DNA of 64,000 nt, taken from contig JAFGGS010000022.1 of NCBI GenBank assembly GCA_016930415.1, forward strand, positions 16,930 through 80,929, in the 5' to 3' direction. Below, in pieces: positions 1,209-52,005 of this stretch (the stretch's first letter is position 1; every line of letters begins with the position of its first letter). Origin of the DNA: Candidatus Woesearchaeota archaeon. GTDB taxonomy: Archaea > Nanobdellota > Nanobdellia > Woesearchaeales > SM23-78. The translations under genes and the position numbers were made by a program. The notes under the pieces were generated by a model. That model did no database searches. It was not told the DNA's origin and was given only the letters and a program-made list of their open reading frames with translations.

Positions 1209-1715
1209 TTAGAACACGTGCTTCTCGAGCAGGAACAGTAGCTCTGGGTGGAACTTCTCTCCACGCTTGGCCATCTGCTTCATCTCTTCTATCGGGAAGA
1301 AATCCACTCTCTCTACGACTTCAGGGTCTGGCTTGAAGGGGCCGTTGAAGGTTGTCCTGAAGGTAGTCAGGAACTTTTCGAGCTTTGGTCCATCCTTGTT
1401 TCCTCCTCCCTTGTAGAAGTCTTTCTTGAAGAACTCGATCCTTGTGGTCATGCCCAGCTCTTCCTGGTACTCTCGCATGGCTGCTTCCTCGTACGTCTCG
1501 CCGCTCTGCACGTGTCCTCCGACTGCCGTGCACCAATGATGAGGGCAGAAAGATACTTTCTTGCTGCGGAGCTGGATCGCCATCTCTCCCTTGTCGTTGT
1601 ATATCAATACGTGGACTATCCTGTGGCGAAGATTCTTCTCGTAGATCTCGCTCTTAGACGCCTTTCCGACTACATTGTCATCCACGTCGACTACATCCAT
1701 GTACTCTATCATCAT
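1209..1715 (-). CDS. NUDIX hydrolase (possibly IPP-isomerase-like)
   Basis: Nudix box GGHVQSGETYEEAAMREYQEELG in 168-aa ORF; CPHHWC...GGH resembles type-1 IDI region. Confidence 0.7.
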   Translation of the reverse strand: MMIEYMDVVDVDDNVVGKASKSEIYEKNLRHRIVHVLIYNDKGEMAIQLRSKKVSFCPHHWCTAVGGHVQSGETYEEAAMREYQEELGMTTRIEFFKKDFYKGGGNKDGPKLEKFLTTFRTTFNGPFKPDPEVVERVDFFPIEEMKQMAKRGEKFHPELLFLLEKHVF

Positions 1716-6500: not shown

Positions 6501-7622
6501 GTGGCTGTTGTCTTGATGAGGAAGAAGAAAATACTGTTCTTGATATCCGATACTGGCGGAGGCCATCGGGCCTCTGCGAACGCAGTGATCTCCGCGCTTG
6601 AAAGAATGGCTCCTGGAAGGTATGATCTTAAGATGGTGGATTTCTTCAACGTGGGGAATTCCGCAGTGGATGGTGTTATCAAGGGATTCTATTCAAGGGT
6701 TATACAAAGGCATCGCTGGGTGTGGGGACTCACGTTCAGCCTGACGAACAACAGGGTCTTCTGGCGAGCAGTACAGCCGCTCTACAGGATAATCCATGAC
6801 AATATAAGGATGATGATTGATAAGGAGAAGCCTGACTTGGTGGTCTCGATCCATCCGATGGTCAACACAATCACCAAGAAGGTGTTGGATGAACTTGGGC
6901 AAGGGATACCTTTCTTGATAATAACAACAGACCCGGTCACGCTCCACGTGGGTTGGCTTGAGCGAGGAGCTGACTTCACGATCGTGGCCACTGAGGATGC
7001 GAAGAAGTGTTTGATAAGCCTTGGCGTGCAAGAGGCGCGCGTGAAGGTCTTGGGCCTCCCGATCGCTCCTGATTTCTACATCCCTGTACGTGATAAGGGA
7101 GTGGTCAAGGCCAGGTTCGGGCTTAGGAAGGATGTGTTCACTGTGCTTTTCAGCGGTGGCGGGGATGGCGGCGGAAAGATATATCCTGTCGTGAAGAGGC
7201 TTATCAAGGATGCTGCCGGTGAGAGGCTGGACTTGCAGGTCATCGTAGTTTGCGGCAGGAACGAGAAGCTCAGGTCCAAGCTGGCTTCTCTTGGTGTGAT
7301 AGCGATACCTTTCACTGATATGATGCCTGAGCTGATGGGTGTCGTGGACCTGATGGTGATCAAGGCAGGCCCAGGAACGATCGAGGAGAGCATGGCTAGG
7401 GGGTTGCCTATTATTATTACGAGCTACCTCCCAGGCCAGGAGAAGGCGAACATCGATTATGCCCGCAAGAAGTGGAGGGCTTTCTACGAGCCGACTGTCA
7501 AGGGGGCAACTGATAGGATCAAGTCTGAGTTCAGGAGCCCTGCTAAGAGGCATGCACCAGTCAAGGCAGGCGACGCTCCAGTCTATAGGATTGCGAAGTT
7601 CATCAGTTCTATGCTGAAATAG
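6501..7622 (+). CDS. GT28 glycosyltransferase, MGDG-synthase/UgtP-like (diacylglycerol glycosyltransferase)
   Basis: N-terminal ILFLISDTGGGHRASANAV motif characteristic of the MGDG synthase/GT28 family; 373 aa. Confidence 0.6.
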   Translation: MAVVLMRKKKILFLISDTGGGHRASANAVISALERMAPGRYDLKMVDFFNVGNSAVDGVIKGFYSRVIQRHRWVWGLTFSLTNNRVFWRAVQPLYRIIHDNIRMMIDKEKPDLVVSIHPMVNTITKKVLDELGQGIPFLIITTDPVTLHVGWLERGADFTIVATEDAKKCLISLGVQEARVKVLGLPIAPDFYIPVRDKGVVKARFGLRKDVFTVLFSGGGDGGGKIYPVVKRLIKDAAGERLDLQVIVVCGRNEKLRSKLASLGVIAIPFTDMMPELMGVVDLMVIKAGPGTIEESMARGLPIIITSYLPGQEKANIDYARKKWRAFYEPTVKGATDRIKSEFRSPAKRHAPVKAGDAPVYRIAKFISSMLK

Positions 7623-9863: not shown

Positions 9864-11126
9864 ATGGTGGTTGCAGGAGCGTCTGAGGAGTCTGTGAGGC
9901 GTTTGTTTGGGTCGGTGGCGAAGGGTGTCCGGCCTAGGAATGCTTCTCTTCCTGAGGCTGACAGGATGATCCGGTCTGTTAATTCTCTTCTTAAGAAGGC
10001 GAGGCTTAAGGCAGTGTGCGTGGCTGGCGGGAGCTATGCTAAGGGCACCGCTCTCAAAGATAATTTTGACGTTGACTTGTTTGTCAGGTTTGATTATTCT
10101 TACAAGAACGAGGATATCTCTGCCCTGCTTGCTCGAGCAATCTCTTCCCTTAAGCCTGAGATTGTCCATGGCAGTAGGGATTACTTCCAGATCAAGAAGG
10201 GAAAGCTCCTCTTCGAGGTCATACCTGTGCTTAGGATCGATGATTATAGGTCTGCCTTGAACGTGACTGACATGAGCCCTCTTCACGTGGTCTATATTGA
10301 GAAGCGCATGAAAAACAAGCCTGCTCTTCGGGACGAGGTGAGGCTTGCTAAGCAGTTCTGCAAGGGAATAAGGGTTTATGGTGCTGAAAGCTATATCCGG
10401 GGTTTTTCTGGCCACGTCCTTGAACTCTTGATAGTCTATTATGGTTCTTTTGAGCAGCTCTTGAAGCAGGCGGCTCTTTGGGGTGAGCGCGTCGTGATCG
10501 ATATCGAGCATCACTGGAAGGATCCCTTGCGGGAGCTCAACTATGCAAAGACCATATCTCCCTTGGTGATTGTTGACCCGATCCAGCCTGACAGGAACGC
10601 TGCTGCTGCCGTCTCTAAGGAGACGTTTGACTGCTTGAGGGTTCAGGCCAGGCGTTTCTTGGAGTCGCCGTCTGGTTCTTTCTTCAAGGTGAGAAAGCTT
10701 AGCATCCCGCTTGTGAAGAAGAGGGCTGGCAAGGATTGGCTGGTCTTGGTCAAGGCGGTTCCCTTGAAGGGCAAGGATGATATCATGGGCAGCAAGGTGC
10801 TCAAGGTCCACGAGCACTTCCAGATGGCTTTGAGGAAGCACGAGTTCAAGCTGCTCGAGGCTGGCTGGGAGTATGCTCCTGTCTGCACGCTTTATTACAT
10901 CATCAAGAAGGAGAGGTTCTCTGACAAGTTGCTCATCACCGGTCCTCCTGTTAAGGTCAGGCCTAATGCTGATCAGTTCAGGGAGAAGCATAAGAGCGCT
11001 TTTGAGAATAGGGGACGATTGTTCGCTGAGGAGAAGAGGCTCTTCAAGGTTCCGGGGCAGCTTCTCAAGGCGTTGTTCAAAGAGGGTCACATTAAGGATA
11101 AGGTCAAGAGGATTTCCTTGCTTTAG
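9864..11126 (+). CDS. cca: archaeal class I CCA-adding tRNA nucleotidyltransferase
   Basis: GGSYAKGTALKDNFDVDLFV NTase motif and RGFSGHVLELLIVYYG typical of archaeal CCA enzymes; 420 aa. Confidence 0.85.
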   Translation: MVVAGASEESVRRLFGSVAKGVRPRNASLPEADRMIRSVNSLLKKARLKAVCVAGGSYAKGTALKDNFDVDLFVRFDYSYKNEDISALLARAISSLKPEIVHGSRDYFQIKKGKLLFEVIPVLRIDDYRSALNVTDMSPLHVVYIEKRMKNKPALRDEVRLAKQFCKGIRVYGAESYIRGFSGHVLELLIVYYGSFEQLLKQAALWGERVVIDIEHHWKDPLRELNYAKTISPLVIVDPIQPDRNAAAAVSKETFDCLRVQARRFLESPSGSFFKVRKLSIPLVKKRAGKDWLVLVKAVPLKGKDDIMGSKVLKVHEHFQMALRKHEFKLLEAGWEYAPVCTLYYIIKKERFSDKLLITGPPVKVRPNADQFREKHKSAFENRGRLFAEEKRLFKVPGQLLKALFKEGHIKDKVKRISLL

Positions 11127-11845
11127 AGTCTCTTCTTTGCTTTTTGTTTCTTAGAACTAGAACTGTTGTTGATTGCTTTCGTCGTCGCTTTGGCGGCTTT
11201 CTTTTGCTCTTGGAGGTCTTTGTAGTACTTGTATGCCTCTATCGCGACTGGTAGTAGTGAGATGCTTATTATTATCAGGATGAATATTGAGAAGTTGTTC
11301 TTTATGATAGGGATGTTGCCGAAGAAGTATCCTCCGAACAGGAACAGGCCGACCCATGCGAGGCCCCCGATTATGTTGTATGCTAGGAACCGTGGGTATT
11401 TCATCGCTCCCACTCCTGCTAGGAATGGGGCGAAGGTCCTTATTATGGGCACGAATCTTGCGATGATTATGGTCTTGCCGCCGTACTTGTCGAAGAATTC
11501 TTTGGTCCTGTCTAGGGCTCGCCTGTCGAGCCACTTGTAGTTTGTTCTGAAGACCTTTGGGCCGATGTAGTGGCCGACTGCGTAATTGAGGCTGTCTCCT
11601 AGGATTGCTGCGAGCGCTAGGAGCGTGAATATCAGCCAGAGGTTGAAGGTCCCTATCGCTGAGAACGTGCCGACGGCGAAGAGCAGCGAGTCTCCTGGCA
11701 GGTAGGGTGCTATCACGACTCCAGTCTCTAAGAACAGGATCGTGAATAGGATTGCGTAGCTCCAGCCTCCAAACATCTGGATCATCGTGGATAGGTGCTC
11801 ATCCAGATGGAGTATGATGTCGAAAAAAAGGGTTATGATGTTCAT
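11123..11845 (-). CDS. DedA/SNARE-associated family membrane protein with Lys-rich tail
   Basis: ILFLETGVVIAPYLPGDSLLFAVG motif of DedA family. Confidence 0.75.
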   Translation of the reverse strand: MNIITLFFDIILHLDEHLSTMIQMFGGWSYAILFTILFLETGVVIAPYLPGDSLLFAVGTFSAIGTFNLWLIFTLLALAAILGDSLNYAVGHYIGPKVFRTNYKWLDRRALDRTKEFFDKYGGKTIIIARFVPIIRTFAPFLAGVGAMKYPRFLAYNIIGGLAWVGLFLFGGYFFGNIPIIKNNFSIFILIIISISLLPVAIEAYKYYKDLQEQKKAAKATTKAINNSSSSKKQKAKKRL

Positions 11846-13698: not shown

Positions 13699-14277
13699 AT
13701 GCAAATGGATATTCATGAGGCAAAAGAGCTATTGAAAGCCTGGGCAGTGACGGCCCTTGCCTTCGGCATCCTGATATGGACTAGGGAGAACACCTTGCTC
13801 TTCAGCGTAGTCATGGCGGCCTTCACAGTGGGTCTCGGCTTCATCCTGCACGAGCTAGCCCATAAAGGCGTTGCAAACGCGTTTGGCAAGCGCTCAGAGT
13901 TCCGCGCCAACAACAGGATGCTCATACTGATGATCCTGATGAGCTTCCTAGGGTTCATATTCGCGGCTCCAGGCGCCGTCTGGACTCATGGCATGGTCTC
14001 AAAGAGGCAAAACGGCATGATAGCAGCAGCAGGTCCCCTAGCAAACATCCTCCTCGCAGCCCTCTTCATCCCCCTAGTCTTCATAATGCCTAAGATAGCT
14101 TATTATGGCGTGATGATAAACGCCCTCCTTGGCTTATTCAACCTCATCCCCATACCTGGCTTTGACGGCGTGAGCGTGGTCGAGTGGAGCAAGACAGCCT
14201 ACATCTCCTTGGCAGCCCTTGCGGTCTTCATGATGATGATGAGCATCGCCCTGCCCAACTTCGTGGCCATAGGCTAG
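13699..14277 (+). CDS. membrane zinc metalloprotease, M50 (site-2 protease)-like
   Basis: HELAH (HExxH) in a TM segment plus NLIPIPGFDG resembling the S2P LDG motif. Confidence 0.6.
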   Translation: MQMDIHEAKELLKAWAVTALAFGILIWTRENTLLFSVVMAAFTVGLGFILHELAHKGVANAFGKRSEFRANNRMLILMILMSFLGFIFAAPGAVWTHGMVSKRQNGMIAAAGPLANILLAALFIPLVFIMPKIAYYGVMINALLGLFNLIPIPGFDGVSVVEWSKTAYISLAALAVFMMMMSIALPNFVAIG

Positions 14278-14332
14278 CGATAGCAGGCTATAAGCTGCTC
14301 TTTGATCGATTTATACTCGGTGGTGACTTGAT

Positions 14333-14479
14333 ATGAAATGTGACTTGTGCGGAAGCAGGATCGAGACAACCTTTTTAAATAAACCAGTAGGCACCTACGT
14401 CAAGAACGAGAAAGGCAAGAAGAAACTCGTCTGCAGCCACTGCCAGCGAAGCGGCAGGATAAAAGAAGTCAAGCAGTGA
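14333..14479 (+). CDS. small zinc-ribbon protein (48 aa)
   Basis: MKCDLCGS...CSHCQRSG: two CxxC pairs; below ORF-track size cutoff. Confidence 0.4.
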   Translation: MKCDLCGSRIETTFLNKPVGTYVKNEKGKKKLVCSHCQRSGRIKEVKQ

Positions 14480-14512
14480 ACAAGGAAAGCCTTTCAAAAA
14501 ATTTATTTTTGC

Positions 14513-14628
14513 GCCTCTGTAGCATAGTGGTGGTGCGGCTGACTCGTAAGCAAAACATTGTTTTTGAATCTCGAAAACTTTGTTTTCAAGAAATCAGCAG
14601 GTCGGGAGTTCAAATCTCCCCAGAGGCT
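14513..14628 (+). tRNA. tRNA-Thr(CGU) with 44-nt intron at canonical 37/38 position (intron 14549..14592)
   Basis: Acceptor GCCTCTG/CAGAGGC, D-arm GCAT-AGTGGTG-GTGC, anticodon stem GCTGA/TCAGC with loop CT-CGT-A|A, T-arm GGGAG-TTCAAAT-CTCCC, discriminator T; CCA not encoded. Confidence 0.8.
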
Positions 14629-14721
14629 TCATATTCAGAGGGACAAATCCTCAATTAGAGCAAATAGCTTTTTTTAAAACTAATAGTAAACAATATAAAC
14701 CGATTAAACTATCTTTATCTA

Positions 14722-15453
14722 ATGAAACTTAAGAATAAGGTTGCACTAATTACAGGGGCTAGCAGAGGCATCGGGAGAGCGACTGCCTTGCTGTTTGCTA
14801 AAGAAGGTGCAAATATTATTGTTAATTATTTTAAAGCAGAAAACGAAGCCAATTCTGTTGTTCAAGATATTAAAAAGATGGGTGCTGACGCAATCACAAT
14901 TAAGTGTGATGTTTCCAAAGAGAATGAAGTCAAACAAATGGTAGATAAGGCAATTAAAAAATTTGGTAAAATAGATATTCTCGTTAATAATGCAGGTATA
15001 GTTTTTGACGTGCCATTTAAAGACAGGACTGTTGAACATTGGAAAAGAACTTTAGATGTTAATCTTATAGGTGCGTTTATTTGTGCTAAACATGTTACTT
15101 CGCACATGAAAAAAGGGCATATTGTTAATATTGCCTCAACTAATGGAATTAATGCTTGCAGTCCTGAATCTATGGATTATGATGCTTCAAAGGCAGGATT
15201 AATTAGCTTGACTAAAACCCTCGCACAGGCATTAGCACCAAATGTTATGGTAAATTGTGTAGCGCCTGGCTGGGTGGATACGGATATAAATAAAGATTTA
15301 CCAAAAGATTATGTGAAGTCAGAAACACAAAATATTTTATTGAAAAGATTTGGCAAACCTGAAGAAATTGCAAAGACAGTCTTGTTCTTAGTATCAGATG
15401 ATGCAAGTTTTATAACTGGAACAACAGTTGTGGTTGCTGGCGGATATCAATAA
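14722..15453 (+). CDS. fabG: SDR family oxidoreductase, FabG (3-oxoacyl-ACP reductase)-like; low-GC, probably horizontally acquired
   Basis: TGASRGIGRA cofactor motif, NNAG, catalytic Y-x3-K (YDASKAG); gene is about 36% GC versus about 52% for surroundings. Confidence 0.8.
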   Translation: MKLKNKVALITGASRGIGRATALLFAKEGANIIVNYFKAENEANSVVQDIKKMGADAITIKCDVSKENEVKQMVDKAIKKFGKIDILVNNAGIVFDVPFKDRTVEHWKRTLDVNLIGAFICAKHVTSHMKKGHIVNIASTNGINACSPESMDYDASKAGLISLTKTLAQALAPNVMVNCVAPGWVDTDINKDLPKDYVKSETQNILLKRFGKPEEIAKTVLFLVSDDASFITGTTVVVAGGYQ

Positions 15454-15667
15454 CACTACGTTATTTTCTGGATTTATCCTCAATAGAAACCGTAGTTTTT
15501 ATAAGTGCCAGCCGCCTATTAAGGGCTAAAGCCTTAAAATCGGAGGGTCAGAAGTTTAGGGGCTTTTTACGCTGCCGGGGTTAAGCCGTTAGGAGGCTGT
15601 TAATTTTATCTTCTTCTGACGTCATCCTAGAATTCTAGCAGGGGGTGCTCTCTTTATCTATTTTTAT

Positions 15668-16246
15668 CTATTCGTTGAGTCTCCTGAATAAGTCTGTTGG
15701 GAGATAAAGCCTTACATTTCCTGGTTTCCATCGGAACCATCCCTTGACAGTGTCCTTCCTGTAGGGCGCGACTAGTGTGCCGTTGTAGGATTCCATCTGG
15801 AGAAACACTCTGCATGGCGGGATCGCTCTGCTCTTGTATCCGATCTCTTCTCTCAGTTCAAAGAAGATCTTTTCATAATCAGTGCTTCCTATGCATGATT
15901 CCAGGTGCCCTGTGCGTGTGGTTATGGATCCTATTGCTCGTTCCTCTGTGCTGTCTAGCAGGGAGAAGAGCCCTCTGAAGTTTCTTTCGCATAATATCTG
16001 GTATGTTGTTGTCTTGTTTGGATTGACGCTCACGTCTTCAATCACGCTTGATGGTTCCTTGGTCTCTTCTATGGGCAAGAAAGTTATGATTTCTTCTGTT
16101 CTCTCCGACAACTCTCTTTCCAGCTTCCCAAGGTTAATCCATTTCAGGCCGTTGTTTTCCATCGGGTCAAGAAATCCCTTTCGCTTTATATGCTTTGCTT
16201 TTCCAGAGTGGTGAATCGCGCTCGCGTCTTTGCGTTGAAACAACAA
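15668..16246 (-). CDS. hypothetical protein
   Basis: 192-aa ORF, no recognisable motif. Confidence 0.35.
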   Translation of the reverse strand: MLFQRKDASAIHHSGKAKHIKRKGFLDPMENNGLKWINLGKLERELSERTEEIITFLPIEETKEPSSVIEDVSVNPNKTTTYQILCERNFRGLFSLLDSTEERAIGSITTRTGHLESCIGSTDYEKIFFELREEIGYKSRAIPPCRVFLQMESYNGTLVAPYRKDTVKGWFRWKPGNVRLYLPTDLFRRLNE

Positions 16247-19330: not shown

Positions 19331-20968
19331 ATGTGGAAGATACCCAGGCGCTTTGCCGGGATAAAGAGGTTTGAGCAGATAGTAGGTGTTCTGTCCAGCC
19401 ACGGCTGGGACTTCTTCCTGGAAAAAAGCGGCCTTAAGAAGAAGTCCTTGTGGACCAAGAAGTACGAGAGCAGACCTGTGGAACTTAGGATGCTCTTTGA
19501 GGAGCTTGGAGGCTCGTTCATCAAGTTCGGCCAATTCCTAAGCCTTAGGCCTGACCTCATCCCTAAAGAGTTCTGCAATGAGCTCTCAAAGCTCCAGGAT
19601 TCTGTCGAGGGTTTCTCTTACGAGGAGGTCGAGCACATCGTCAAGCACGAGCTCAAGAAGCCAATAAAGGCTCTCTTCAAGAGCTTTGAGAAGAAGCCCA
19701 TCGCAGCGGCTAGCATAGGCCAGGTGCACGCAGCGACCCTAAAGAGCGGCAAGAAGGTCGCGGTCAAGGTGATGAGACCAGGCATCCGCGCGCTCTTTGA
19801 GACTGACCTTGAGATCCTCGACTACCTCTCAAGGCTTGTCAAGCACCACTTCGACCCTGAAGTGTTTGATCCTGAGGAGATATTCGACGAGTTCAAGCGC
19901 TACACAGAGAACGAGCTAGACTATCTTAAGGAGGCTCGGAACATAAAGCTCTTCAGGGACATGTTCAAGTCTGACAAGAAACTCATAATCCCCAAAGTAT
20001 ACGATGATCTGTCCACCAAGCGAATCCTGGTCATGGAGTACGTCCCCGGCATCAAGCTCTCTGACATAATCCACGAACCAGGCAGATTCAAGAAGGTCAA
20101 CAAGACCAAGCTTTGCAAGGACTTGGCAGAGTCGTTCATGAAGCAGATATTCCTTGTAGGTGACTTCCACGCAGACCCGCACCCAGGGAACATCATCGTA
20201 AGCAAGACCAAGATAGCCCTTCTGGACTTCGGGATCATAGGCCGGCTTGATGACGAGATGAAGGAAAAGCTAGGGGGTCTCCTCCTCGCCGTAGTCAACA
20301 GGAATCCTGACGAGATCGTGACTGCGATGATGAATCTCAACTTGGTAGACACTGCGGTCGATCGCTTCCGCTTAAGAGAAGAGATCATAGACCAGCTAGG
20401 CGAGTTCTACGATGTGCCATTGGAGAAGATGGACATAGCCGAGCTCTTCTTCAGGTGCATCGACATCGCGAGGCGCCACAAGATAAAGATCTCGAGAGAG
20501 TTTGTCCTCCTTGGAAAGAGCTTGGTGACGCTCAAAGGAGTGTGCTTGGAGCTGAACCCGAAGTTCAACATAGTCCAGGAGAGCAAGAGCTTCATGAAGA
20601 CCTTGATGGCTGACAAGAGGAACCCGAAACACATAATAAAGCGCATCGCTGCCGAGTCTGAGAGGTTCGCCCGCTTTGTCCATGACATCCCAGACCAGAC
20701 CAGGAAGATATTCGGCCTAGTCTCCAAGGCAGACACTGCCCTCGACACAATCAACCACGATATTTTCATCCTGACAAGGGAGGTCAGGAAGGAGAGTATA
20801 CGCGTCGTCTTAGGAGTGATCGTTGCCGCGCTCATAATATCTTCAAGCGTGACTATCGGGATAGACCCGACCCTCAGCAAGGCCTTCGCCTTGTTCGCAG
20901 GGATCATGCTGGCCTTCATGATGCTCTCCATTTTCTTTGATGGATTCAGGAGAAATTCTATGCTTTGA
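19331..20968 (+). CDS. ubiB: UbiB/ABC1 (aarF-domain) atypical protein kinase with C-terminal TM segments
   Basis: AAASIGQVHAATL...KVAVKVMRPG, DFHADPHPGNIIV motifs of ABC1/UbiB family. Confidence 0.8.
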   Translation: MWKIPRRFAGIKRFEQIVGVLSSHGWDFFLEKSGLKKKSLWTKKYESRPVELRMLFEELGGSFIKFGQFLSLRPDLIPKEFCNELSKLQDSVEGFSYEEVEHIVKHELKKPIKALFKSFEKKPIAAASIGQVHAATLKSGKKVAVKVMRPGIRALFETDLEILDYLSRLVKHHFDPEVFDPEEIFDEFKRYTENELDYLKEARNIKLFRDMFKSDKKLIIPKVYDDLSTKRILVMEYVPGIKLSDIIHEPGRFKKVNKTKLCKDLAESFMKQIFLVGDFHADPHPGNIIVSKTKIALLDFGIIGRLDDEMKEKLGGLLLAVVNRNPDEIVTAMMNLNLVDTAVDRFRLREEIIDQLGEFYDVPLEKMDIAELFFRCIDIARRHKIKISREFVLLGKSLVTLKGVCLELNPKFNIVQESKSFMKTLMADKRNPKHIIKRIAAESERFARFVHDIPDQTRKIFGLVSKADTALDTINHDIFILTREVRKESIRVVLGVIVAALIISSSVTIGIDPTLSKAFALFAGIMLAFMMLSIFFDGFRRNSML

Positions 20969-21395: not shown

Positions 21396-22550
21396 TTAAT
21401 GCTTATTTATAAAGCTAACTGTTTTAAAGATGGTTATCGGAGCCTGCTGCTGGCTGGCATACGCCTTTAAGGCCTCTATGGCAAAGCCTGTCGTGAGCTC
21501 TTCTGAACCGTATGAAAATGAATCGAACGGCCCGGCTATGAACAAGGCGCCTCTTGGCCACGAACCGTCTTCTCCTTGAGTCTTGAGGAGCCTAATCACC
21601 CCGCCCCTGACTTCTTCACCTGAATATCCCAGGTTAATGAGCGTATCCACTGCGAGCGCTGTTTCGAGCTCGTTTCCAAAAGACCCGTCGTGCATCCTGG
21701 AAGACAGGGTCTGGCCTATTATTATCTCCTTGCTGCTGTCAAGACAGCTCACATTGCTCCTTATGGCCCTTGATAGCATGTAGTTCCTGGCCAGCCTATT
21801 CGGATAGAATTGGGAGCAGTTCTCATTGTTCTTGACTGCTCGGTTGATGAAATCGCATACCTCAGGATACTGGTCTCCTAGGTATAAGAGCACGTTCACG
21901 TTCACGATGCAGTCTACTATGCCGTATTCTCCTTCACGATCGTCTTCTTTTATCCACGTGTAGAACAATCCTTCCGGATTCCTGTTATCAAGGAATGCTC
22001 TAGTATTGTCCTTGAGTTTCATCCCGTTCATCTTCAAAGCGAGTGAGGCAGCAGCGGTGTCGTCAAGGTCAGGCACTATATCCTGGGTGTTCCTGCTGGA
22101 GTAATACCTCCATATCCCTCCCGGCATCTTCTCGCCTGATAAGAACTCAAGTCCTTTCCTTGTAATGTCCGCGACTTGAGCATTATCATTGAGGTTCCTT
22201 ACTGAGTATAGTATGAGCGCTGTCGCGAATGGCGAGCTGTCAAAAGCGCATTCACTCATCTCCTCATATTGTTCGCTTCTGCACCTGTAAGTCCTGAACT
22301 CCCCGTAGTCCAGTTGCGACTCGTATAGGAACGCAATCGCCTTTTCCAGGGAGCGGTTTATCATGATGCTCTCTTCAGAGAGGTGTTTCTGGCTGTAGAT
22401 TAAGCTGCTCCCCTGACGATTCAGTCTGCTTATCAAGAAGATGCTGGCTGAGATGAGAAGCGTCAAGATGAGAATGGAGAAAAGGATTATCCTTGTGTTC
22501 CAGGATTGTATGCTGTTCCTGTTATCTTGACTTTTCCGTCTTCTTCGCAT
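21396..22550 (-). CDS. membrane-anchored prenyltransferase/class II terpene-cyclase-like alpha/alpha-toroid repeat protein with DxDDTA motif
   Basis: N-terminal TM, VPDLDDTAAASLALK (DxDDTA as in squalene-hopene cyclase), repeated GxWxxx motifs (GGIWRYY, DGSWPRG, DGSFGNE). Confidence 0.45.
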   Translation of the reverse strand: MRRRRKSQDNRNSIQSWNTRIILFSILILTLLISASIFLISRLNRQGSSLIYSQKHLSEESIMINRSLEKAIAFLYESQLDYGEFRTYRCRSEQYEEMSECAFDSSPFATALILYSVRNLNDNAQVADITRKGLEFLSGEKMPGGIWRYYSSRNTQDIVPDLDDTAAASLALKMNGMKLKDNTRAFLDNRNPEGLFYTWIKEDDREGEYGIVDCIVNVNVLLYLGDQYPEVCDFINRAVKNNENCSQFYPNRLARNYMLSRAIRSNVSCLDSSKEIIIGQTLSSRMHDGSFGNELETALAVDTLINLGYSGEEVRGGVIRLLKTQGEDGSWPRGALFIAGPFDSFSYGSEELTTGFAIEALKAYASQQQAPITIFKTVSFINKH

Positions 22551-25122
22551 CGAGAGAACTCTCCGAGTTCTTTGTGTCAGAGGCTTTGCCTCTGAGCACG
22601 TCGAGCTCCTTCTTGAATCTCAGGATCGTCTTTAGCACGTGCTCAGGCTGGGTCTGGAGGATGTCTGCGAGCTTGACGAGCACGTCTGTTCCCTTATACT
22701 CCTCATCTGAGACCAGCTTGAGCTCCTTCAGCTGTTCTGGAGTCGCGCCACCTTTTCCAAGCTTTCTTGCCTTCTTCCACTTTAAGAAAAGCTCCTCGAC
22801 CCTTGAAGGCAGCCTTCTTTCATCGACGCCTAGCGCTGTGCTTGCCTCCTTCAGGATGTCCTTCTCTTTAGATAACGTTTTCTCTGCTGCTTCTCCTGCA
22901 GTGAACTCGATCCTCACGATGCCGTCCTGGATTTTGGTGGACTTGAGCAGCTTTATGATCTTGGTCTCTCCTGTCAGGTTGAGGTGAGTGCCTCCGCAGG
23001 CCTCGACGTCAAGCCCCTCGATCGACACGACCCGTATCTCTTTGCCCGGCACAGCTCCCCCTTGGTAGAGCACGAAGCCGTACTTAGCCTCTGCGATGCT
23101 CCTTGGCATGAAGCTCTTGTAGATCGGAAGGTTCATCTCGATCACCTTGTTCGCCAAGTCTTCTATCTTCCTCATCTCAGCGTCAGATAACGCGTCGTAG
23201 TGCGTGATGTCCAGCCTTGCCTTCTCAAGGCTCTTAGAGGCTCCTGCCTGCCAGATGTGATTGCCGAGCACCTGCCTTGCGACGCCGTTTATGATATGGG
23301 CTGCGGTGTGGTGCTGTGTGAGCTGGAGCCTTATGCTCGAGTCAACCCTGCCTTGCACCTTGTCGCCTGCCTTGAACTTGGGCTTGTCCTTCATGACATG
23401 GATGATGACTGCGCCTTGCTTGAATATCTCGACTACCTCGTCCCCAGATATCTTTCCCTTGTCATGGAGCTGCCCTCCGCTCGTGGGATAGAAGACTGTC
23501 CTGTCAAGCACGACTAGCTTGTCATCTATGATCTTGAGTACTTGGGCTTCGAAGTCCAGGTAGTCGTAGGCGTCGAAGTAGAGCGCCTTAGTGGCTGGGA
23601 TCCCTTTCAGGTCGAGCTCTTTCTCCTTCCTGGTCTGGGTCTTCTGCTCTCCCTTCTCATGCCTCTCTGCGACTAGCGCGAAGAAGTTGTCAGGTATCTC
23701 GACGCGCATTCCTAGCTTCTTGGCCTCTTCCTTTACAGTCTCAGGGCTCACTCCCTGGCTGTCGTATAGCTCTATCAGCTTCTTGGTAGTGACTTCCTTG
23801 CCGCTCTTGAGCAATTGGTCCACGACCTGGGCTCCCTTCTTCTTGGTCTGGTAATATTTCTGCTTCTCGTTCTCAAGGACCTTCTTAACGTCCGAGAGGT
23901 TGTTCTTCAGGTCCGGGTAGATCGGTTCTAGGTAATCTGCGTGCCACTCGCACACATCCACCAAGTCTATCTTCCATCCGTACGACTCTATGAAGTCCAT
24001 AGCCCTCCTGAATATGACCCTCAAGTTGTAATATCCGCCGACGTTCGAAGGAAGGCCTCCGTCGCTTATCGAGAAAAGGAGCGCTCTTGCGTGCTCTGCG
24101 ACTGAGTAGAGCGCTGTCATGGGCTGTATCTTGGCCTTGAGCTCCTCCACAGGGACTTTGACCTCTGACGCGATCTCACTCCACACCGCATCGACGTCTT
24201 CCACTTCGTCGAAGTTGAGCTTTGTCGCGAGGGGCGCGAACTTCTTGTAGAGCGCGTGGTCGAACTCGACGCCGAGCTTATCCTTGAGCTTGTCGATCAC
24301 AGTCGGGAAGGCGGCGTCGTAGACTGTCGGTGCTCCCTGGCTGAACCATGCGACCCGCTCCATCCCAAGACCCATGTCGAGCACCTTGATCCTGAGTTCC
24401 TTATCTCCATGGTCTGAGTGCTCGAACATCATGTAGACCTGGTTGAACAGCTCGACTCCCCTGCTGAAGAACTCCATGCAAGGCCCGAAGTTCCCTCCGC
24501 CAGCCCAGGAGTCCTCGTGAAGCGTGAGCTCCTCCTTCGGGACGCCCACTTCCTTTGTTATGTACTCATAAATATCCTTGAACGCCTGCTCCTGGCTCCA
24601 CTCCTTCGGCTCGACGAACATGTGCTGTCCTATCATCACGAATCCAGTGCAGTGGCTTCCAGTCACTCCAACGTTGTCTATATCCCCAAATCTTAAGCAG
24701 AACTGGGGAATCACGAGCTTCCTTGCCGGCGGATCGCACTCTCCGCTTATGACATAGGGCTGGAACGCTGCGATGCTCGCGTTGGTGAAGTAAGTCGTCG
24801 GGTTCCAGCGGGCGATAACAGGATACCTGGTAACTGCGTGGTAGCCTCTCTTCTCAAAGAAGCCTTTGAACCCAAGCCAGACCCCGACAAAGTCGATTTT
24901 CCTCTTTACAGGAGGCTTGTCGAATATGTCGACTCTGCCTCTGCAAGCCGCGTCTCCGCACGCATCCTGGCCTTTGTGGACAGTCCAGTAGTAAAGGCCG
25001 CACTTGGGGCACTTCTTTCTCACAAACCCCTCTGCCTTGAGTACGCTCGTCGCGTAGTACTTGTCAGGCTCAAGCGCGGCCATCGCCTTGAACTTCTTCT
25101 TGAGCTCCTTGTCTGAAAGCAT
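22522..25122 (-). CDS. alaS: alanine--tRNA ligase (archaeal type)
   Basis: 866 aa; HTAAHI and CGGTH editing-domain motifs, archaeal AlaRS N-terminal zinc-binding region. Confidence 0.9.
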   Translation of the reverse strand: MLSDKELKKKFKAMAALEPDKYYATSVLKAEGFVRKKCPKCGLYYWTVHKGQDACGDAACRGRVDIFDKPPVKRKIDFVGVWLGFKGFFEKRGYHAVTRYPVIARWNPTTYFTNASIAAFQPYVISGECDPPARKLVIPQFCLRFGDIDNVGVTGSHCTGFVMIGQHMFVEPKEWSQEQAFKDIYEYITKEVGVPKEELTLHEDSWAGGGNFGPCMEFFSRGVELFNQVYMMFEHSDHGDKELRIKVLDMGLGMERVAWFSQGAPTVYDAAFPTVIDKLKDKLGVEFDHALYKKFAPLATKLNFDEVEDVDAVWSEIASEVKVPVEELKAKIQPMTALYSVAEHARALLFSISDGGLPSNVGGYYNLRVIFRRAMDFIESYGWKIDLVDVCEWHADYLEPIYPDLKNNLSDVKKVLENEKQKYYQTKKKGAQVVDQLLKSGKEVTTKKLIELYDSQGVSPETVKEEAKKLGMRVEIPDNFFALVAERHEKGEQKTQTRKEKELDLKGIPATKALYFDAYDYLDFEAQVLKIIDDKLVVLDRTVFYPTSGGQLHDKGKISGDEVVEIFKQGAVIIHVMKDKPKFKAGDKVQGRVDSSIRLQLTQHHTAAHIINGVARQVLGNHIWQAGASKSLEKARLDITHYDALSDAEMRKIEDLANKVIEMNLPIYKSFMPRSIAEAKYGFVLYQGGAVPGKEIRVVSIEGLDVEACGGTHLNLTGETKIIKLLKSTKIQDGIVRIEFTAGEAAEKTLSKEKDILKEASTALGVDERRLPSRVEELFLKWKKARKLGKGGATPEQLKELKLVSDEEYKGTDVLVKLADILQTQPEHVLKTILRFKKELDVLRGKASDTKNSESSLDAKKTEKSR

Positions 25123-27729: not shown

Positions 27730-29997
27730 TCAGTACAAGGGTATATTTCCTGTGCCTTCTCCGACCAGCTCAACGTTCTTGACCTTTGAGAGGTCGCCAA
27801 TCTTGTTGATGCGTAGCAGTCCTTGGCTCTTGGTGTAGAGCAGGTCTTCGATGTAGAGGCTCCTCTCGACTGCTGGTCTGTAGTAGTACTTGCCGCCCAA
27901 TGACGCGGAGTGGTCTACGATGCCTCGCAGCTCGATGTCGTCCTTGGTTATCTTGAAGACCATCGCGCCGTTGTAGCCTTGCACTGCTTCTGGCTTCCTT
28001 GGCATGATCTCGTCTCCTTCCCATCCCCAGTCATCGTAGGTCTGGCTGTAGGCTGGTATCACGAGCAGCTCTTTCTCTTTTGAGAAGAGGAATGCCTTGT
28101 GCTCGTACTCTGCAGTGCTCTGAGCGTATCGCTCGTCCGTCGTGAACTTGGCGATTTCCTTCGGCTTCTCGACGTCTGTCACGTCGAAGAGGCTTATCTT
28201 GAGTCCGCGCGTCCTTCCAGTCTCGCTCGCGTCCCTGCCTATGCCTATTATCGTGTTCGCATCGTACGGGTGCAGGTACCTGCTAAAGCCCGGTATCTTG
28301 AGCTTGCCAAGCATCCTCGGGTTCTTGGCGTCGCTTAGGTCGATTACGAAGAACGGGTCGACCTGCCTGAACGTGACCATGTAAAGCCTCTCGCCTATGA
28401 ACCTGGTGGAGTAGATCTGCTCTCCCTCTGCAAGGCCCTTGAGCGATCCTAGCACCTTGAGGCTCTTGTCCATCGTGAAGACGTTGTTCGTTGACTCTGT
28501 CATCTTCTCATCGCTTGTCGCGGCGAACCTTGACCATCTCTGGCTGATAGTCGTCGCTATCCTGAAGACGTCTCCTTCCTCGTCCATGCTGAACTGGTTC
28601 ATGATATGGCCAGGCACCTTGCCATTGGCCTCGACCTCGATGTCTCCGTTGTTCACGCTTATCCTGTTAACGATTGTGTACTCGAAATGCTCGTACTCGT
28701 CAAGCTTCTTCTTCAGGAGAGCTTCTGCCTCATCCCTTAAGTCCTCCTGCTCTTCCTGGGTCATGAAGTTCATGTAGTCGTACGCGATCTGCATCACCTT
28801 TGACCTCTTCTCTGCTTTTGAGAGCAGGTCCTCATCAGCGGCTTTTATCTTCTTGATGAGATCCTTGTCGCTGTCGGTGAGCCTTGGCGTCATCATCTCC
28901 AGTATGATGTCCTGCTCTATCTCCCACTCGTTGATGTACTCAGTGTACGTGATGTAGATGTTCTTATCGCTCATGTAAAGGTTCTGTCCGTTCTCGACAG
29001 CAATGCTCTTGGAGTTCACGCTTGCCTCCAGGTCTGCCAGGTTTATCGCGTGGATGTTCGCCAGCGTCACTCCGTTGTACGGGATGTTGAAGTAGTGGAT
29101 GTCACGCACAGGCATGGCTTTTATGGTGGCTCCGTCCATCATCACGGGCGTCGGGTAGATCCTTCTGTACTCGGGGTTCAGGTTGGTTATCAGGTAGGCG
29201 TAGCCCTCTGTCATCCTAGCCTCTGAGTAGTATCCTTCGAACTTGTAGTCCTTGACGAGCTTTGGCTCGGCCTTGTCGCTCGTGTCGTAGATTCTGACAA
29301 AGGTCATGCCTTGCCTTGGCCTAAAGTCCATCTCCTTGAAGAAGTCGTTGTCATAGAAGTTGCCGATGACCGCTAGCTTGTCTCCTTTGACAAAGAGGCC
29401 TGTCGGTCGGCTCTTGAACTTGACTTGTGAGATTACCTCTGCGTCCTCTCCAGGATAAGCCTTGATTATGAACAAGGAGTTTCCTGATATGGTGTATACG
29501 TAGTCCCCGTCCGTCTTGATGATGTCTGCCTCGTCGACCGTAGACACTTGGTTGTTCGTCTCTGAGTAGTCGATGTCAGCTCCGTTCTGCGCTGACTCTC
29601 CAGCAGTCACCTTGACGGCAGTAGGCGCTGCCATCGGGGCGGATCCTGCAGAGTCCAAGGCCAGGCTTTCGACCATGACTCCTCTCGCCATGTCTGCGCC
29701 GCCGAAGTATCCTCCACCGCTGACGCTGTTGGACTTGACGAACGCCAAGTACTCCGAGTCAGACTCGAAGTTGCTGGTCTCTATCTTCTCCACAGGGTCA
29801 AATGACGCCTGGGAATGGGTCGCCGCGCTCCCATCCACGTGCTCGATTATAGGCGGGATGACTCCTCCTTCGCACGCTGATAGCAGCATCCCTGCAGCCA
29901 CTAGGAACATAAGCAATATTATTGTAGTTATTATCCCTTCCTTCTTCATTCCCTTCTTCATATGGATCACCTTGCCTGTCTTATTGATCATACGCAA
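27730..29997 (-). CDS. large secreted lipoprotein (755 aa), hypothetical
   Basis: Signal peptide with lipobox-like LLSAC, coiled-coil segment, long extracellular region. Confidence 0.5.
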   Translation of the reverse strand: MRMINKTGKVIHMKKGMKKEGIITTIILLMFLVAAGMLLSACEGGVIPPIIEHVDGSAATHSQASFDPVEKIETSNFESDSEYLAFVKSNSVSGGGYFGGADMARGVMVESLALDSAGSAPMAAPTAVKVTAGESAQNGADIDYSETNNQVSTVDEADIIKTDGDYVYTISGNSLFIIKAYPGEDAEVISQVKFKSRPTGLFVKGDKLAVIGNFYDNDFFKEMDFRPRQGMTFVRIYDTSDKAEPKLVKDYKFEGYYSEARMTEGYAYLITNLNPEYRRIYPTPVMMDGATIKAMPVRDIHYFNIPYNGVTLANIHAINLADLEASVNSKSIAVENGQNLYMSDKNIYITYTEYINEWEIEQDIILEMMTPRLTDSDKDLIKKIKAADEDLLSKAEKRSKVMQIAYDYMNFMTQEEQEDLRDEAEALLKKKLDEYEHFEYTIVNRISVNNGDIEVEANGKVPGHIMNQFSMDEEGDVFRIATTISQRWSRFAATSDEKMTESTNNVFTMDKSLKVLGSLKGLAEGEQIYSTRFIGERLYMVTFRQVDPFFVIDLSDAKNPRMLGKLKIPGFSRYLHPYDANTIIGIGRDASETGRTRGLKISLFDVTDVEKPKEIAKFTTDERYAQSTAEYEHKAFLFSKEKELLVIPAYSQTYDDWGWEGDEIMPRKPEAVQGYNGAMVFKITKDDIELRGIVDHSASLGGKYYYRPAVERSLYIEDLLYTKSQGLLRINKIGDLSKVKNVELVGEGTGNIPLY

Positions 29998-49548: not shown

Positions 49549-50208
49549 TCAGAATCCGCTCAGCGTCTTCTGCTTGCTTTCTGCTTTCTTCGCCGCCGTC
49601 TTCCAAGTCCCCCAGCTTTTCCTGAAGAAGTCGTACTTGTCGTACTTGTCTTTCACGAACTGGGCCGTGACTGGGTCTGCGGGGTAACCTGATCCGAAGT
49701 TGACGTTGTGCTTCTTCTTGAGTTCCTCGATCGCGTGGTCTCGTGTGACCTTTGCAAGGATGCTCGCAGCGCCGACTATGAGATACTTGTAGTCTGCTTT
49801 GTGCTCTACGACTAGCTTCGGCTTGTAGGAAAGCTTCTGCCTAAGATAGTCAGTATATGCCTTTGGATTCGCGCTTGGGCAGTCGACGAACACTTTCTCG
49901 ACGCCATTCTTCTGCTGGTTGTTGATTAGCTTGGCCCCTACGTCTGCCTCAAGCCAGTTGAGGTTCGTCGTCTCGCTCTCGACCGCAGAGTCTATGTCTG
50001 CGGGCCCAACCGCTATTATTTCGTACTTGCAGATCCTCTTGATCTGGCCTATCATGCGCTCCCTGTTAGCGGGGGTTATGAGCTTTGAGTCCTTTACCCC
50101 TATCTTCTCAAGCTCCGGCAGGTCTTTCTCGTCTATCACTGCTATAGCCATGACTATTGGGCCTATCACCGGCCCCCGGCCTGCCTCGTCTATGCCTGCT
50201 ATTATCAT
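49549..50208 (-). CDS. rnhB: ribonuclease HII
   Basis: MIIAGIDEAGRGPVIGPIVMA N-terminal catalytic motif. Confidence 0.85.
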   Translation of the reverse strand: MIIAGIDEAGRGPVIGPIVMAIAVIDEKDLPELEKIGVKDSKLITPANRERMIGQIKRICKYEIIAVGPADIDSAVESETTNLNWLEADVGAKLINNQQKNGVEKVFVDCPSANPKAYTDYLRQKLSYKPKLVVEHKADYKYLIVGAASILAKVTRDHAIEELKKKHNVNFGSGYPADPVTAQFVKDKYDKYDFFRKSWGTWKTAAKKAESKQKTLSGF

Positions 50209-50331
50209 GATACAAGAATAAGGCGCGTTGTTATTTAAATCTTGCTTCTGAATACGTTCTTTGGTTTATTTGTTACTTTCAAGTGGTCTTTGACAGAAAT
50301 TCTTATAAATTAAACACGATTCTCTGAGATT

Positions 50332-51090
50332 ATGGGGAATCCGTTTGAGGAGACTAAAAAAAGACTGCGTTTAGCAGAAGAGGAAGCTAATCGTTATAGA
50401 GATTTATCTCTCTGTGTTATCCTTGCTGGATCAGTCGCTTACTCTCCTAATCACGCAGTTACTGAATCCTCAGATTTAGATTTGATTGTTGTATCTGCTG
50501 ATGTAAAAGGTATGCTGTCACTTCTTATTGAGGACTCTCAAGAATTATCTGCTCTTAAAAACAGGTTCTTTGAGGGTTACTGTCTAAAACGTGAGAGCCA
50601 AGGGATCCCTGTGAGCATACATCTCCTTAGTGAAGATGCCTTTGATATTATTAGTAAATGTTTTGTATCTAATATGCGCGTCTACAGGCCAAAACCAAAA
50701 CCTGAGGCCTATTCCTTACATGGATTTGATGGCGCAGTGTATCCTTATTTCATAAAAAATGTGTCCTTGCCGGATTTAAGGGGTGTGCGCACTATAGTTC
50801 CCATATCCTTCATATATGATGATAGATATCATCTAGGAATCCATAGAGACAAGCTTCTTAGCAATCCGAAGATTTTATGCGAATCCGAACAACATGCCTC
50901 TGCTCGTATTGACAAATTATGGGCTGTTGTTGTGGAAAACTTATATGATGAAGCACATAGGCTATATGGTCATCTGGATTTGGGCAGGATGAACGTACTT
51001 AATGCGTTATCGAGGTCTCATAAGATGACGCCAGCTGTCATTGCAGAAATTACTGGCAAGACCTCGTTCTACTTATCTCGTCTCAGATAA
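50332..51090 (+). CDS. Pol-beta-superfamily nucleotidyltransferase of unknown specificity (low GC)
   Basis: GSVAYSPNHAVTESSDLDLIVV = GS..(x)..DxD minimal NTase motif; about 40% GC. Confidence 0.55.
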   Translation: MGNPFEETKKRLRLAEEEANRYRDLSLCVILAGSVAYSPNHAVTESSDLDLIVVSADVKGMLSLLIEDSQELSALKNRFFEGYCLKRESQGIPVSIHLLSEDAFDIISKCFVSNMRVYRPKPKPEAYSLHGFDGAVYPYFIKNVSLPDLRGVRTIVPISFIYDDRYHLGIHRDKLLSNPKILCESEQHASARIDKLWAVVVENLYDEAHRLYGHLDLGRMNVLNALSRSHKMTPAVIAEITGKTSFYLSRLR

Positions 51091-51967: not shown

Positions 51968-52005
51968 TAAGAACTAGAAAGAATTTGGGATTATTTAAAT
52001 TTTAT

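Follow-up and report, generated by a model that had tools for sequence, protein, structure and literature searches.

Which function can be assigned to a short protein that carries the motif of a class II terpene cyclase behind a predicted membrane anchor, and that is encoded by a Candidatus Woesearchaeota archaeon? The question is raised by an open reading frame of contig JAFGGS010000022.1, which was analysed within a stretch of 64,000 nucleotides, here called the window. The encoded protein, referred to as the query, is the same 384-amino-acid protein as NCBI record MBN1793282.1, where it has already been labelled as a 'terpene cyclase/mutase family protein'. The AlaRS and UbiB proteins encoded on either side are likewise identical to NCBI proteins of a Candidatus Woesearchaeota metagenome-assembled genome. 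From the DNA sequence alone, it had been described before as a membrane-anchored protein with a squalene-hopene cyclase (SHC)-like DxDDTA motif and QW-like repeats; this description is called the original prediction below. On balance, the results presented here lean towards a membrane-anchored, outward-facing and catalytically active monodomain class II cyclase.

The closest characterised protein, both by sequence and by predicted structure, was identified as AsDMS, the HAD-fused drimenol synthase of Aquimarina spongiae, also named 'DMS-1' (PDB 9MHS/9MLO/9M7D). When the query sequence was compared to the PDB with phmmer, AsDMS's C-terminal domain was found with an E-value of 5.6e-12 over query residues 102-362. 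With a profile of 120 homologs, the match covered the whole domain (chain residues 251-523, E 9e-27), the identity between query and AsDMS being 22%. Weaker matches of the same profile were obtained to fungal AstC (2e-14), to SHC (2e-14, one QW-like stretch), to the myxobacterial proteins 8PAK/8PAJ, to SsDMS and to the merosterolic acid synthase MstE (2e-5, partial). The AlphaFold2 (AF2) model, which was calculated from the alignment of 120 sequences, has a mean predicted local distance difference test score (pLDDT) of 90.5 and a predicted template modelling score (pTM) of 0.84, and consists of an N-terminal helix followed by one α/α barrel. In a Foldseek comparison of this model to the PDB, AsDMS was the best match (E 2e-14, root-mean-square deviation (rmsd) ~3.2 Å over ~320 columns), followed by 8PAK/8PAJ (6e-11 to 1e-9), MstE (2e-9), SsDMS (~5e-8), and SHC and oxidosqualene cyclase (OSC; both ~1e-7). 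Ranks 1-39 were occupied by class II cyclases throughout, and non-cyclase toroids, namely MmpH and the complement TED domain, were first encountered at rank 40 with rmsd values of 9-20 Å. Since the profile and Foldseek rankings are led by AsDMS and non-cyclase toroids appear only from rank 40, the query is, as judged from sequence comparison and the structural model, no SHC but a homolog of the class II terpene cyclases with a β domain only (monodomain). An identity as a TED or cobalamin-binding protein was rejected on score and residue mapping.

With these results, the assignment of the motif to class II terpene cyclases and the α/α-toroid fold proposed in the original prediction were both borne out, the structure prediction giving the single domain that had been looked for. 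The likeness to SHC held for the class II superfamily only, since the nearest relatives are the β-only cyclases, that is, the AsDMS domain, MstE and the myxobacterial enzymes. The scores of the query with the SHC/OSC models of NCBIfam remained far under the cut-offs (26.7, 19.8 and 14.8 bits for TIGR01507, TIGR01787 and TIGR03463, compared to 322.7, 431.1 and 851), and the Pfam family SQHop_cyclase_C reached 17.9 bits at a cut-off of 26.1, touching one QW-like stretch only. A HAD-like phosphatase domain was not found in the Pfam scan of the query. Three relaxed QW-like hairpin motifs are present, and three or more of them arise in 0.01% of shuffles; a canonical QW motif, however, is absent from the query sequence, so that the QW-like repeats of the earlier description stood in their relaxed form only. 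The 'several' GxW/GSW repeats were overstated, as the query contains two GxW motifs, GIW145 and GSW329. SHC and OSC (PDB 1SQC and 1W6K) share with the query the superfamily, the DxDDTA motif, the QW-like hairpins and the association with the membrane, and both are described as monotopic membrane proteins. They are built as β-γ didomain proteins of 630-730 amino acids, whereas the query has a single cyclase domain of about 300 amino acids on a transmembrane anchor, in line with the earlier remark that a protein of 384 amino acids is far shorter than these enzymes.

The segment VPDLDDTAAASLALK of the query contains the sequence DLDDTA, and a D.DDT string was obtained in 0.3% of the shuffles of the query protein. 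For AsDMS, D323 of the DxDT motif was reported to be the general acid (PMC12232559). In the HMMER alignment, D321-L-D323-T of AsDMS corresponds to D161-L-D163-D164 of the query; instead of generic prenyltransferase-repeat matches without an aligned DxDD, which would have spoken against a cyclase, the searches returned proteins in which the motif aligns with the general acid. Conservation of the motif in homologs, which had been set as a test beforehand, was found for D161 and D163 in all of the 120 homologs, for D164 in 115 and for T165 in 97. The residues of AsDMS involved in cation-π interactions, F271, F308 and Y417 (PMC12232559), have their equivalents, by alignment only, in F108, Y149 and Y249 of the query. 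The phosphate/diphosphate site of AsDMS consists of R368, R370, R415 and Y416, plus R503 (PMC12232559), and at these positions the query contains R205, I211, Q247, F248 and F342, respectively. In 110 of the 120 homologs, the position of R370 is occupied by D or N, and the positions of R415 and R503 are variable; of the whole site, the family keeps only the aromatic equivalent of Y416. Judged from these alignments, the acid and carbocation machinery is intact in the query, and the recognition of the head group must differ from the one in AsDMS, because the diphosphate site is not conserved. A substrate can also not be proposed by analogy with AsDMS, since the diphosphate-binding arginines are absent.

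In addition to the acid, the aromatic residues and the 22% identity, AsDMS and the query have in common that they contain a single β domain and lack a γ domain. They differ in that AsDMS carries a HAD phosphatase domain and the query a transmembrane anchor instead, in that the motif is DxDTT in AsDMS and the canonical DLDDT in the query, in the diphosphate residues R368/R370/R415/R503, which are not conserved in the query family, and in their origin, with AsDMS being derived from a marine member of the Bacteroidota and the query from an archaeon and predicted to be extracytoplasmic. A stand-alone, β-only homolog of the AsDMS C-terminal domain has been described from Sorangium cellulosum (WP_129572421), in which a DxD(V)T motif is similarly placed, and it was shown to cyclise farnesyl diphosphate (FPP) in vitro in the absence of Mg2+ (10.1101/2025.09.20.677545). 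For the stand-alone architecture, this enzyme provides direct evidence of cyclase activity; for an activity of the query itself, the support from it is indirect. For the Sorangium enzyme, which was expressed in E. coli with an N-terminal His-tag, a signal peptide or anchor was not reported (10.1101/2025.09.20.677545). Its motif is DxDVT, and it keeps an arginine (R188) equivalent to R370 of AsDMS, in contrast to I211 in the query and to most of the family, which are without arginine at this position. Among the fetched homologs, none was found to match the landmark residues published for the enzyme from Sorangium.

MstE (PDB 6SBB) and the myxobacterial proteins 8PAK/8PAJ are, like the query, β-only monodomain proteins, with about 350 amino acids. 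Their structures match the model of the query with E-values of ~1e-9 to 6e-11 and TM-scores of ~0.6-0.69; the sequence match of MstE is weak and limited to one QW-like stretch. By score, the query is closer to AsDMS than to MstE both in the profile search (9e-27 versus 2e-5) and in Foldseek (2e-14 versus 2e-9). The gene of MstE belongs to a biosynthetic cluster, and its product acts on a prenylated dihydroxybenzoate; the gene of the query, in contrast, is an orphan and codes for a protein with an anchor. The clade of MstE is reported to include archaeal sequences, such as those from Methanosarcina (PMC12414744), and functional didomain diterpene cyclases from Asgard archaea have been characterised (10.1101/2025.02.07.637177). 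A class II cyclase in an archaeon is no surprise in itself, because of these reports, and the earlier statement that archaea do not typically have such an activity no longer holds in full. A literature search on class II cyclases in DPANN archaea, of incomplete coverage, gave nothing relevant.

The N-terminus of the query is arranged like an N-in signal anchor. The 21-residue hydrophobic stretch reaches a maximum of 2.79 on the Kyte-Doolittle scale with a window of 17 residues, and lysine and arginine were counted seven times in residues 1-20, compared to three times in the 15 residues past the transmembrane segment. In the AF2 model, a helix extends over residues 8-51, with pLDDT values of 95-96 for residues 21-40. 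The presence of a basic N-terminus and of one predicted transmembrane helix in the 384-amino-acid form agrees with the membrane anchoring proposed earlier. By this pattern, the cyclase domain appears to be located on the outer face of the membrane. Here and in the homologs, leaders, signal anchors and lipoboxes were assigned heuristically by hydropathy and regular expressions, not by a trained predictor.

An N-terminal hydrophobic leader was identified in 23 of the 120 homologs, nine of which contain a lipobox (for example, LSGC, ITSC, LISC or VSGC). In a rough neighbour-joining (NJ) tree of the 120 homologs, leaders are present in 21 of the 30 members of the clade of the query and in two of the 90 sequences outside. 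Six cysteine positions, C90, C101, C214, C232, C245 and C269, are occupied by cysteine to 87-96% in the leader-bearing proteins compared to 7-46% in the leaderless ones, and the full pattern was found in 22 sequences, with the query having all six. The leaderless proteins keep three other cysteines, at positions 167, 302 and 357 (82-89%), and few members of the exported group have these. C90 and C101 occur together in 20 of the 23 leader-bearing and in four of the 97 leaderless proteins; Fisher's test, without a correction for phylogeny, gives p 6e-16. The even number of clade-specific cysteines and the loss of the 'cytoplasmic' ones, which are typical of exported and disulfide-bonded proteins, suggest that the leader-bearing clade represents such an enzyme. 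Among the archaea, all four DPANN-type homologs (the one in the window and those of loci L002, L004 and L006) have anchors, and the methanogen homologs checked (Methanosarcina, L012, and Methanothrix, L027) have none. Judged from the sequences, one sub-clade has gained signals for export and a cysteine pattern of its own. This putatively exported clade comprises DPANN archaea (Woesearchaeota and Pacearchaeota) and, from bacteria, Omnitrophica, Fermentibacteria, Desulfobacterales and lipobox-bearing metagenomic members. In the literature, searched with a loose query and incomplete coverage, no account was found of a cysteine-rich sub-clade that is exported or anchored in the membrane.

The family as a whole was delimited with HMMER in an exhaustive scan that covered 1.84 billion representative proteins, in which 988 clusters (at 50% identity) were obtained at E ≤ 1e-30 and 2,415 with the threshold at E ≤ 1e-10. 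Of the best 150 matches listed, most have a length of 300-390 amino acids, and some are long fusions. Much longer proteins with a fused family domain are P0140 (1619 amino acids), P0144 (1470), P0156 (1400), P0066 (580) and P0110 (642); in the precomputed Pfam assignments, P0066 has TPR families and P0110 a sulfotransferase. The Pfam accession PF28380 is among the precomputed assignments of many homologs. For the stand-alone relatives of the AsDMS domain, about 1,000 clusters, no link to any characterised enzyme was found. Related loci were collected in a genome scan with an alignment of 25 sequences. Here, archaeal homologs were identified in DPANN archaea (Pacearchaeota and unclassified archaea) and in methanogens (Methanosarcina, L012; Methanothrix, L027; Methanoregula), and bacterial ones in the candidate phyla radiation (CPR), Omnitrophica, Anaerolineae, Acidobacteria, Gemmatimonadota, Cyanobacteria, Myxococcota and others.

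Across 80 loci, the surrounding open reading frames were clustered and the representatives annotated with Pfam. The recurrent neighbours were UbiA prenyltransferase (21 loci), glycosyltransferase family 4 (GT4; 17), cytochrome P450 (16), sulfotransferase (16), ABC transporter (14), glycosyltransferase family 2 (GT2; 13), polyprenyl synthase (11) and radical SAM protein (11). In two CPR loci, L003:19-10182 from Patescibacteria and L007:7253-16705 from Pacebacteria, a leaderless homolog is part of an apparent operon. Both contain genes for a short-chain dehydrogenase/reductase (SDR), polyprenyl synthase, hydroxymethylglutaryl-CoA (HMG-CoA) synthase and reductase, GHMP-family kinases and a NUDIX/IDI-like protein; a diphosphomevalonate decarboxylase (MVD) is present only in L007, and a Pfam-confirmed UbiA and a geranylgeranyl reductase only in L003. 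The operons are compact isoprenoid-lipid cassettes in genome-reduced bacteria. Where CPR homologs group in the clade of the query in the NJ tree, as the one of L007 (P0029) does, they are enclosed by a complete mevalonate operon. The UbiA, polyprenyl synthase and mevalonate neighbours, together with the active Sorangium homolog as an analogy, support the view that the family at large consists of genuine isoprenoid cyclases.

Two further observations were made at these loci. The polyprenyl synthase gene of L003 (L003:3299-5764) codes for 821 amino acids in total and contains an intein with a LAGLIDADG homing-endonuclease domain. In methanogens and bacteria, a protein of about 360-370 amino acids repeatedly adjoins leaderless members (L027:9020-10114, L020:6706-7818, L034:6068-7180, L025:3125-4207 and L026:2693-3787). 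This neighbour had no Pfam match in the three scanned copies (L027, L020 and L034) and no DxDD in the five copies checked by regular expression (L020, L023, L025, L026 and L027). It is linked to the cyclase component by BLAST, and may be a divergent paralog or another partner.

The anchored DPANN-type genes are orphans beside housekeeping genes and are not located in terpenoid clusters. In locus L006, from an uncultured archaeon, a convergent gene for a UbiA-family prenyltransferase (L006:8917-9576, minus strand) overlaps the end of the anchored cyclase gene; at no other anchored locus was a neighbour related to isoprenoids seen.

For a catalytically active query, the following mechanism can be proposed, for which we infer the topology, the disulfides, that the protein is catalytically active, and what kind of substrate it takes. 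As a type-II (signal-anchor) protein, it would have its short basic N-terminus in the cytoplasm and a single helix across the membrane, and its β-type cyclase domain of about 300 residues would be placed on the outer face of the membrane, where it is probably stabilised by up to three disulfides. D163 would be located at the bottom of a pocket lined by the aromatic residues F108, Y149 and Y249, and would protonate the terminal C=C bond, or an epoxide, of an isoprenoid chain, starting a cationic cascade of ring closures. Such a chemistry would need neither ATP nor another cofactor, and Mg2+ was shown to be dispensable for the cyclisation by AsDMS (PMC12232559) and by the Sorangium enzyme (10.1101/2025.09.20.677545). 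Because no ATP or cofactor is required and Mg2+ is dispensable in the closest characterised relatives, the cyclisation could proceed outside of the cell. The substrate is possibly a membrane-resident polyprenyl lipid; it is probably not bound as FPP is in AsDMS, because the diphosphate clamp of the latter is not conserved. For the exported clade as a whole, a wider and less likely reading is that its members would be the first terpene cyclases to act at the outward side of the cytoplasmic membrane, where they would remodel isoprenoid lipids of the membrane or of the host by a cofactor-free, acid-catalysed cyclisation, at the cell surface or at the interface between symbiont and host.

Several points weigh against an exported and active enzyme. 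No characterised exported terpene cyclase was found in a literature search, the query of which was loose and the coverage incomplete. A start at Met63 would yield a soluble cytoplasmic protein, the diphosphate-binding arginines of AsDMS are not kept, and no polyprenyl synthase, UbiA or other terpenoid gene is present near the cyclase gene in the window. When the open reading frames of the window were compared by BLAST with the polyprenyl synthase, UbiA and mevalonate genes of the related loci, the matches were limited to glycosyltransferases, an SDR and a NUDIX protein, the latter with 29% identity to the IDI-like gene. A full lipid synthesis is generally assumed to be missing from DPANN archaea. 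With this lipid dependence and no terpenoid neighbours, the query has no evident source of substrate. Finally, the correlation of cysteines and leaders is confounded by shared ancestry, because the signal of both comes from one clade.

Some of these points would also fit a protein that binds or scavenges isoprenoid lipids at the surface, for example, lipids of the host, without cyclising them. The query looks extracytoplasmic and membrane-tethered in an organism of a group thought to rely on host lipids, its gene is an orphan without terpenoid partners nearby, the diphosphate clamp of AsDMS has been lost, and binding is the role of other α/α toroids that match it weakly, such as transcobalamin and the complement TED domain. 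However, no exported member deviates in the pair of aspartates with the general acid, and the three cation-π aromatics are kept, which is not obviously needed for binding, and the binding-type toroids match the query by about 20 orders of magnitude worse than the cyclases do. A role in binding only is regarded as unlikely.

Less probable still is a soluble cytoplasmic monodomain cyclase which starts at Met63, the anchor being an artefact of an extension of the reading frame into the intergenic region between alaS, the gene for the alanine--tRNA ligase, and the cyclase gene. Such a form of 322 amino acids, without the anchor, was reported by one public gene caller (P0001), 97 of the 120 family members are leaderless, and the long form requires that the start of the cyclase gene lies inside the 3' end of alaS, with an overlap of 29 nucleotides (22522-22550). 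On the other side, the NCBI call is 384 amino acids long, and the 62 additional codons before Met63 form an open reading frame that encodes a textbook positive-inside signal anchor, with a hydrophobic core modelled confidently by AF2. In addition, a GGAGA sequence is located about 10 nucleotides 5' of the first ATG, and the query is nested in the clade with leaders in 21 of 30 members and carries all six cysteines of the leader type. An archaeal homolog with a leader (L004) also overlaps an upstream aminoacyl-tRNA synthetase (aaRS) gene, the start of its anchored cyclase gene being within the 3' end of cysS on the same strand (L004:7881-7896). On the basis of the NCBI call, the anchor-coding extra codons, the GGAGA sequence and the membership in a leader-bearing clade with all six of its cysteines, the 384-amino-acid form is favoured over the one starting at Met63. 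Because of the overlap with the 3' end of alaS, co-transcription of alaS and the cyclase gene is likely, and the two DPANN-type loci, with alaS in the window and cysS in L004, suggest that anchored cyclases are co-transcribed with housekeeping genes.

A different chemistry on the α/α toroid, like that of a glycoside hydrolase or lyase which acts on a cell-surface polysaccharide with the acidic motif providing the catalytic carboxylates, is considered highly improbable. Exported α/α6 barrels are often glycoside hydrolases, weak matches to the MmpH hydrolase and to Pec_lyase were obtained, and glycosyltransferases are common neighbours in the wider family. MmpH, however, is found at rank 40 with an rmsd of 9 Å and an E-value of 1.5e-5, compared to 2e-14 for AsDMS, the conserved residues map to the general acid and the carbocation-stabilising aromatics of the cyclases, and the wider family is tied to UbiA, polyprenyl synthase and mevalonate genes. 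A genuine triterpene cyclase of the SHC or OSC type, for which the identical DxDDTA motif and the weak matches to SQHop_cyclase_C and TIGR01787/TIGR01507 would speak, is effectively ruled out by the single-domain architecture of about 300 instead of about 630 amino acids, with NCBIfam scores of 19.8-26.7 bits against cut-offs of 322-431, with SHC being matched in sequence searches via one QW-like stretch only and with the canonical QW motif absent.

Table 1. Features of the anchored cyclase gene and of the overlapping alaS gene, in coordinates of the window.
Feature	Residues	Position	Strand	Remarks
Alanine--tRNA ligase gene (alaS)		22522..25122	-	Upstream of the cyclase gene, same strand
Complete open reading frame of the cyclase	1-384	21396..22550	-	384 amino acids; ATG start, TAA stop
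Basic N-terminal segment, MRRRRKSQDNRNSIQSWNTR	1-20	22491..22550	-	7 K/R; predicted to be cytoplasmic by the positive-inside rule
Single hydrophobic helix, IILFSILILTLLISASIFLIS	21-41	22428..22490	-	Putative signal anchor/transmembrane segment
Linker	42-63	22362..22427	-	Met63 (22362-22364), alternative start
β-only class II terpene cyclase-like α/α-barrel domain	64-367	21450..22361	-	AF2, Foldseek, profile versus PDB
QW-like motif 1, FLYESQLDYGEF	74-85	22296..22331	-	
C90...C101, candidate disulfide	90-101	22248..22283	-	On two strands of a predicted β-hairpin (AF2)
F108	108	22227..22229	-	Equivalent of AsDMS F271; F in 117/120
QW-like motif 2, FLSGEKMPGGIW	136-147	22110..22145	-	
Y149	149	22104..22106	-	Equivalent of AsDMS F308; Y or F in 120/120
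D161-L-D163-D164-T-A, putative general-acid motif	161-166	22053..22070	-	D163 aligns with AsDMS D323
Region of four further clade cysteines	214-269	21744..21911	-	C214 21909-21911, C232 21855-21857, C245 21816-21818, C269 21744-21746
Y249	249	21804..21806	-	Equivalent of AsDMS Y417; Y in 102/120
QW-like motif 3, VIRLLKTQGEDGSW	318-331	21558..21599	-	Sole stretch reached by Pfam SQHop_cyclase_C

In the vicinity of the cyclase gene, a gene for a UbiB/ABC1 atypical kinase was identified in convergent orientation (19331-20968, plus strand). Since it adjoins the cyclase gene in no other locus, it was rejected as a functional partner and no link is claimed. Other lipid-related genes of the window code for a DedA-family protein (11123-11845, minus strand), an MGDG-synthase-like glycosyltransferase (6501-7622, plus strand) and a NUDIX protein (1209-1715, minus strand; 29% identical to the IDI-like gene of the CPR operon), and none of the four genes is conserved beside the cyclase gene elsewhere. 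A β-propeller protein of 755 amino acids (27730-29997, minus strand; Pfam Beta_propel, E 1e-146) has a leader ending in the lipobox-like sequence LLSAC, which points to a further surface-tethered protein and to the use of lipoboxes in the source archaeon. At 14513-14628 (plus strand), an Rfam match to a tRNA spans 116 nucleotides, where ARAGORN made no report; from this length, the tRNA must contain an intron, as would fit an archaeon. The GC content of the segments 14001-16000 and 50001-52000 is 0.415 and 0.408, respectively, compared to a window average of about 0.50.

β-Only class II cyclases have been recognised recently, with MstE, the β domain of AsDMS and one Sorangium enzyme, and it has been discussed whether the whole superfamily of SHC, OSC and diterpene cyclases may descend from them (PMC12414744). 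In genome-reduced DPANN archaea, the putatively exported form is retained as an orphan gene beside housekeeping genes. As a 'terpene cyclase family protein' the query is ordinary; it would become interesting if the wider reading of the clade as extracytoplasmic cyclases is true, which is regarded as less likely than not. If the exported form is active, terpene cyclisation would take place outside of the cytoplasm, and a testable handle would be available on the modification of isoprenoid lipids by lipid-dependent nano-archaea. If it is inactive, a cyclase fold would have been recruited as a lipid-binding module of the cell surface.

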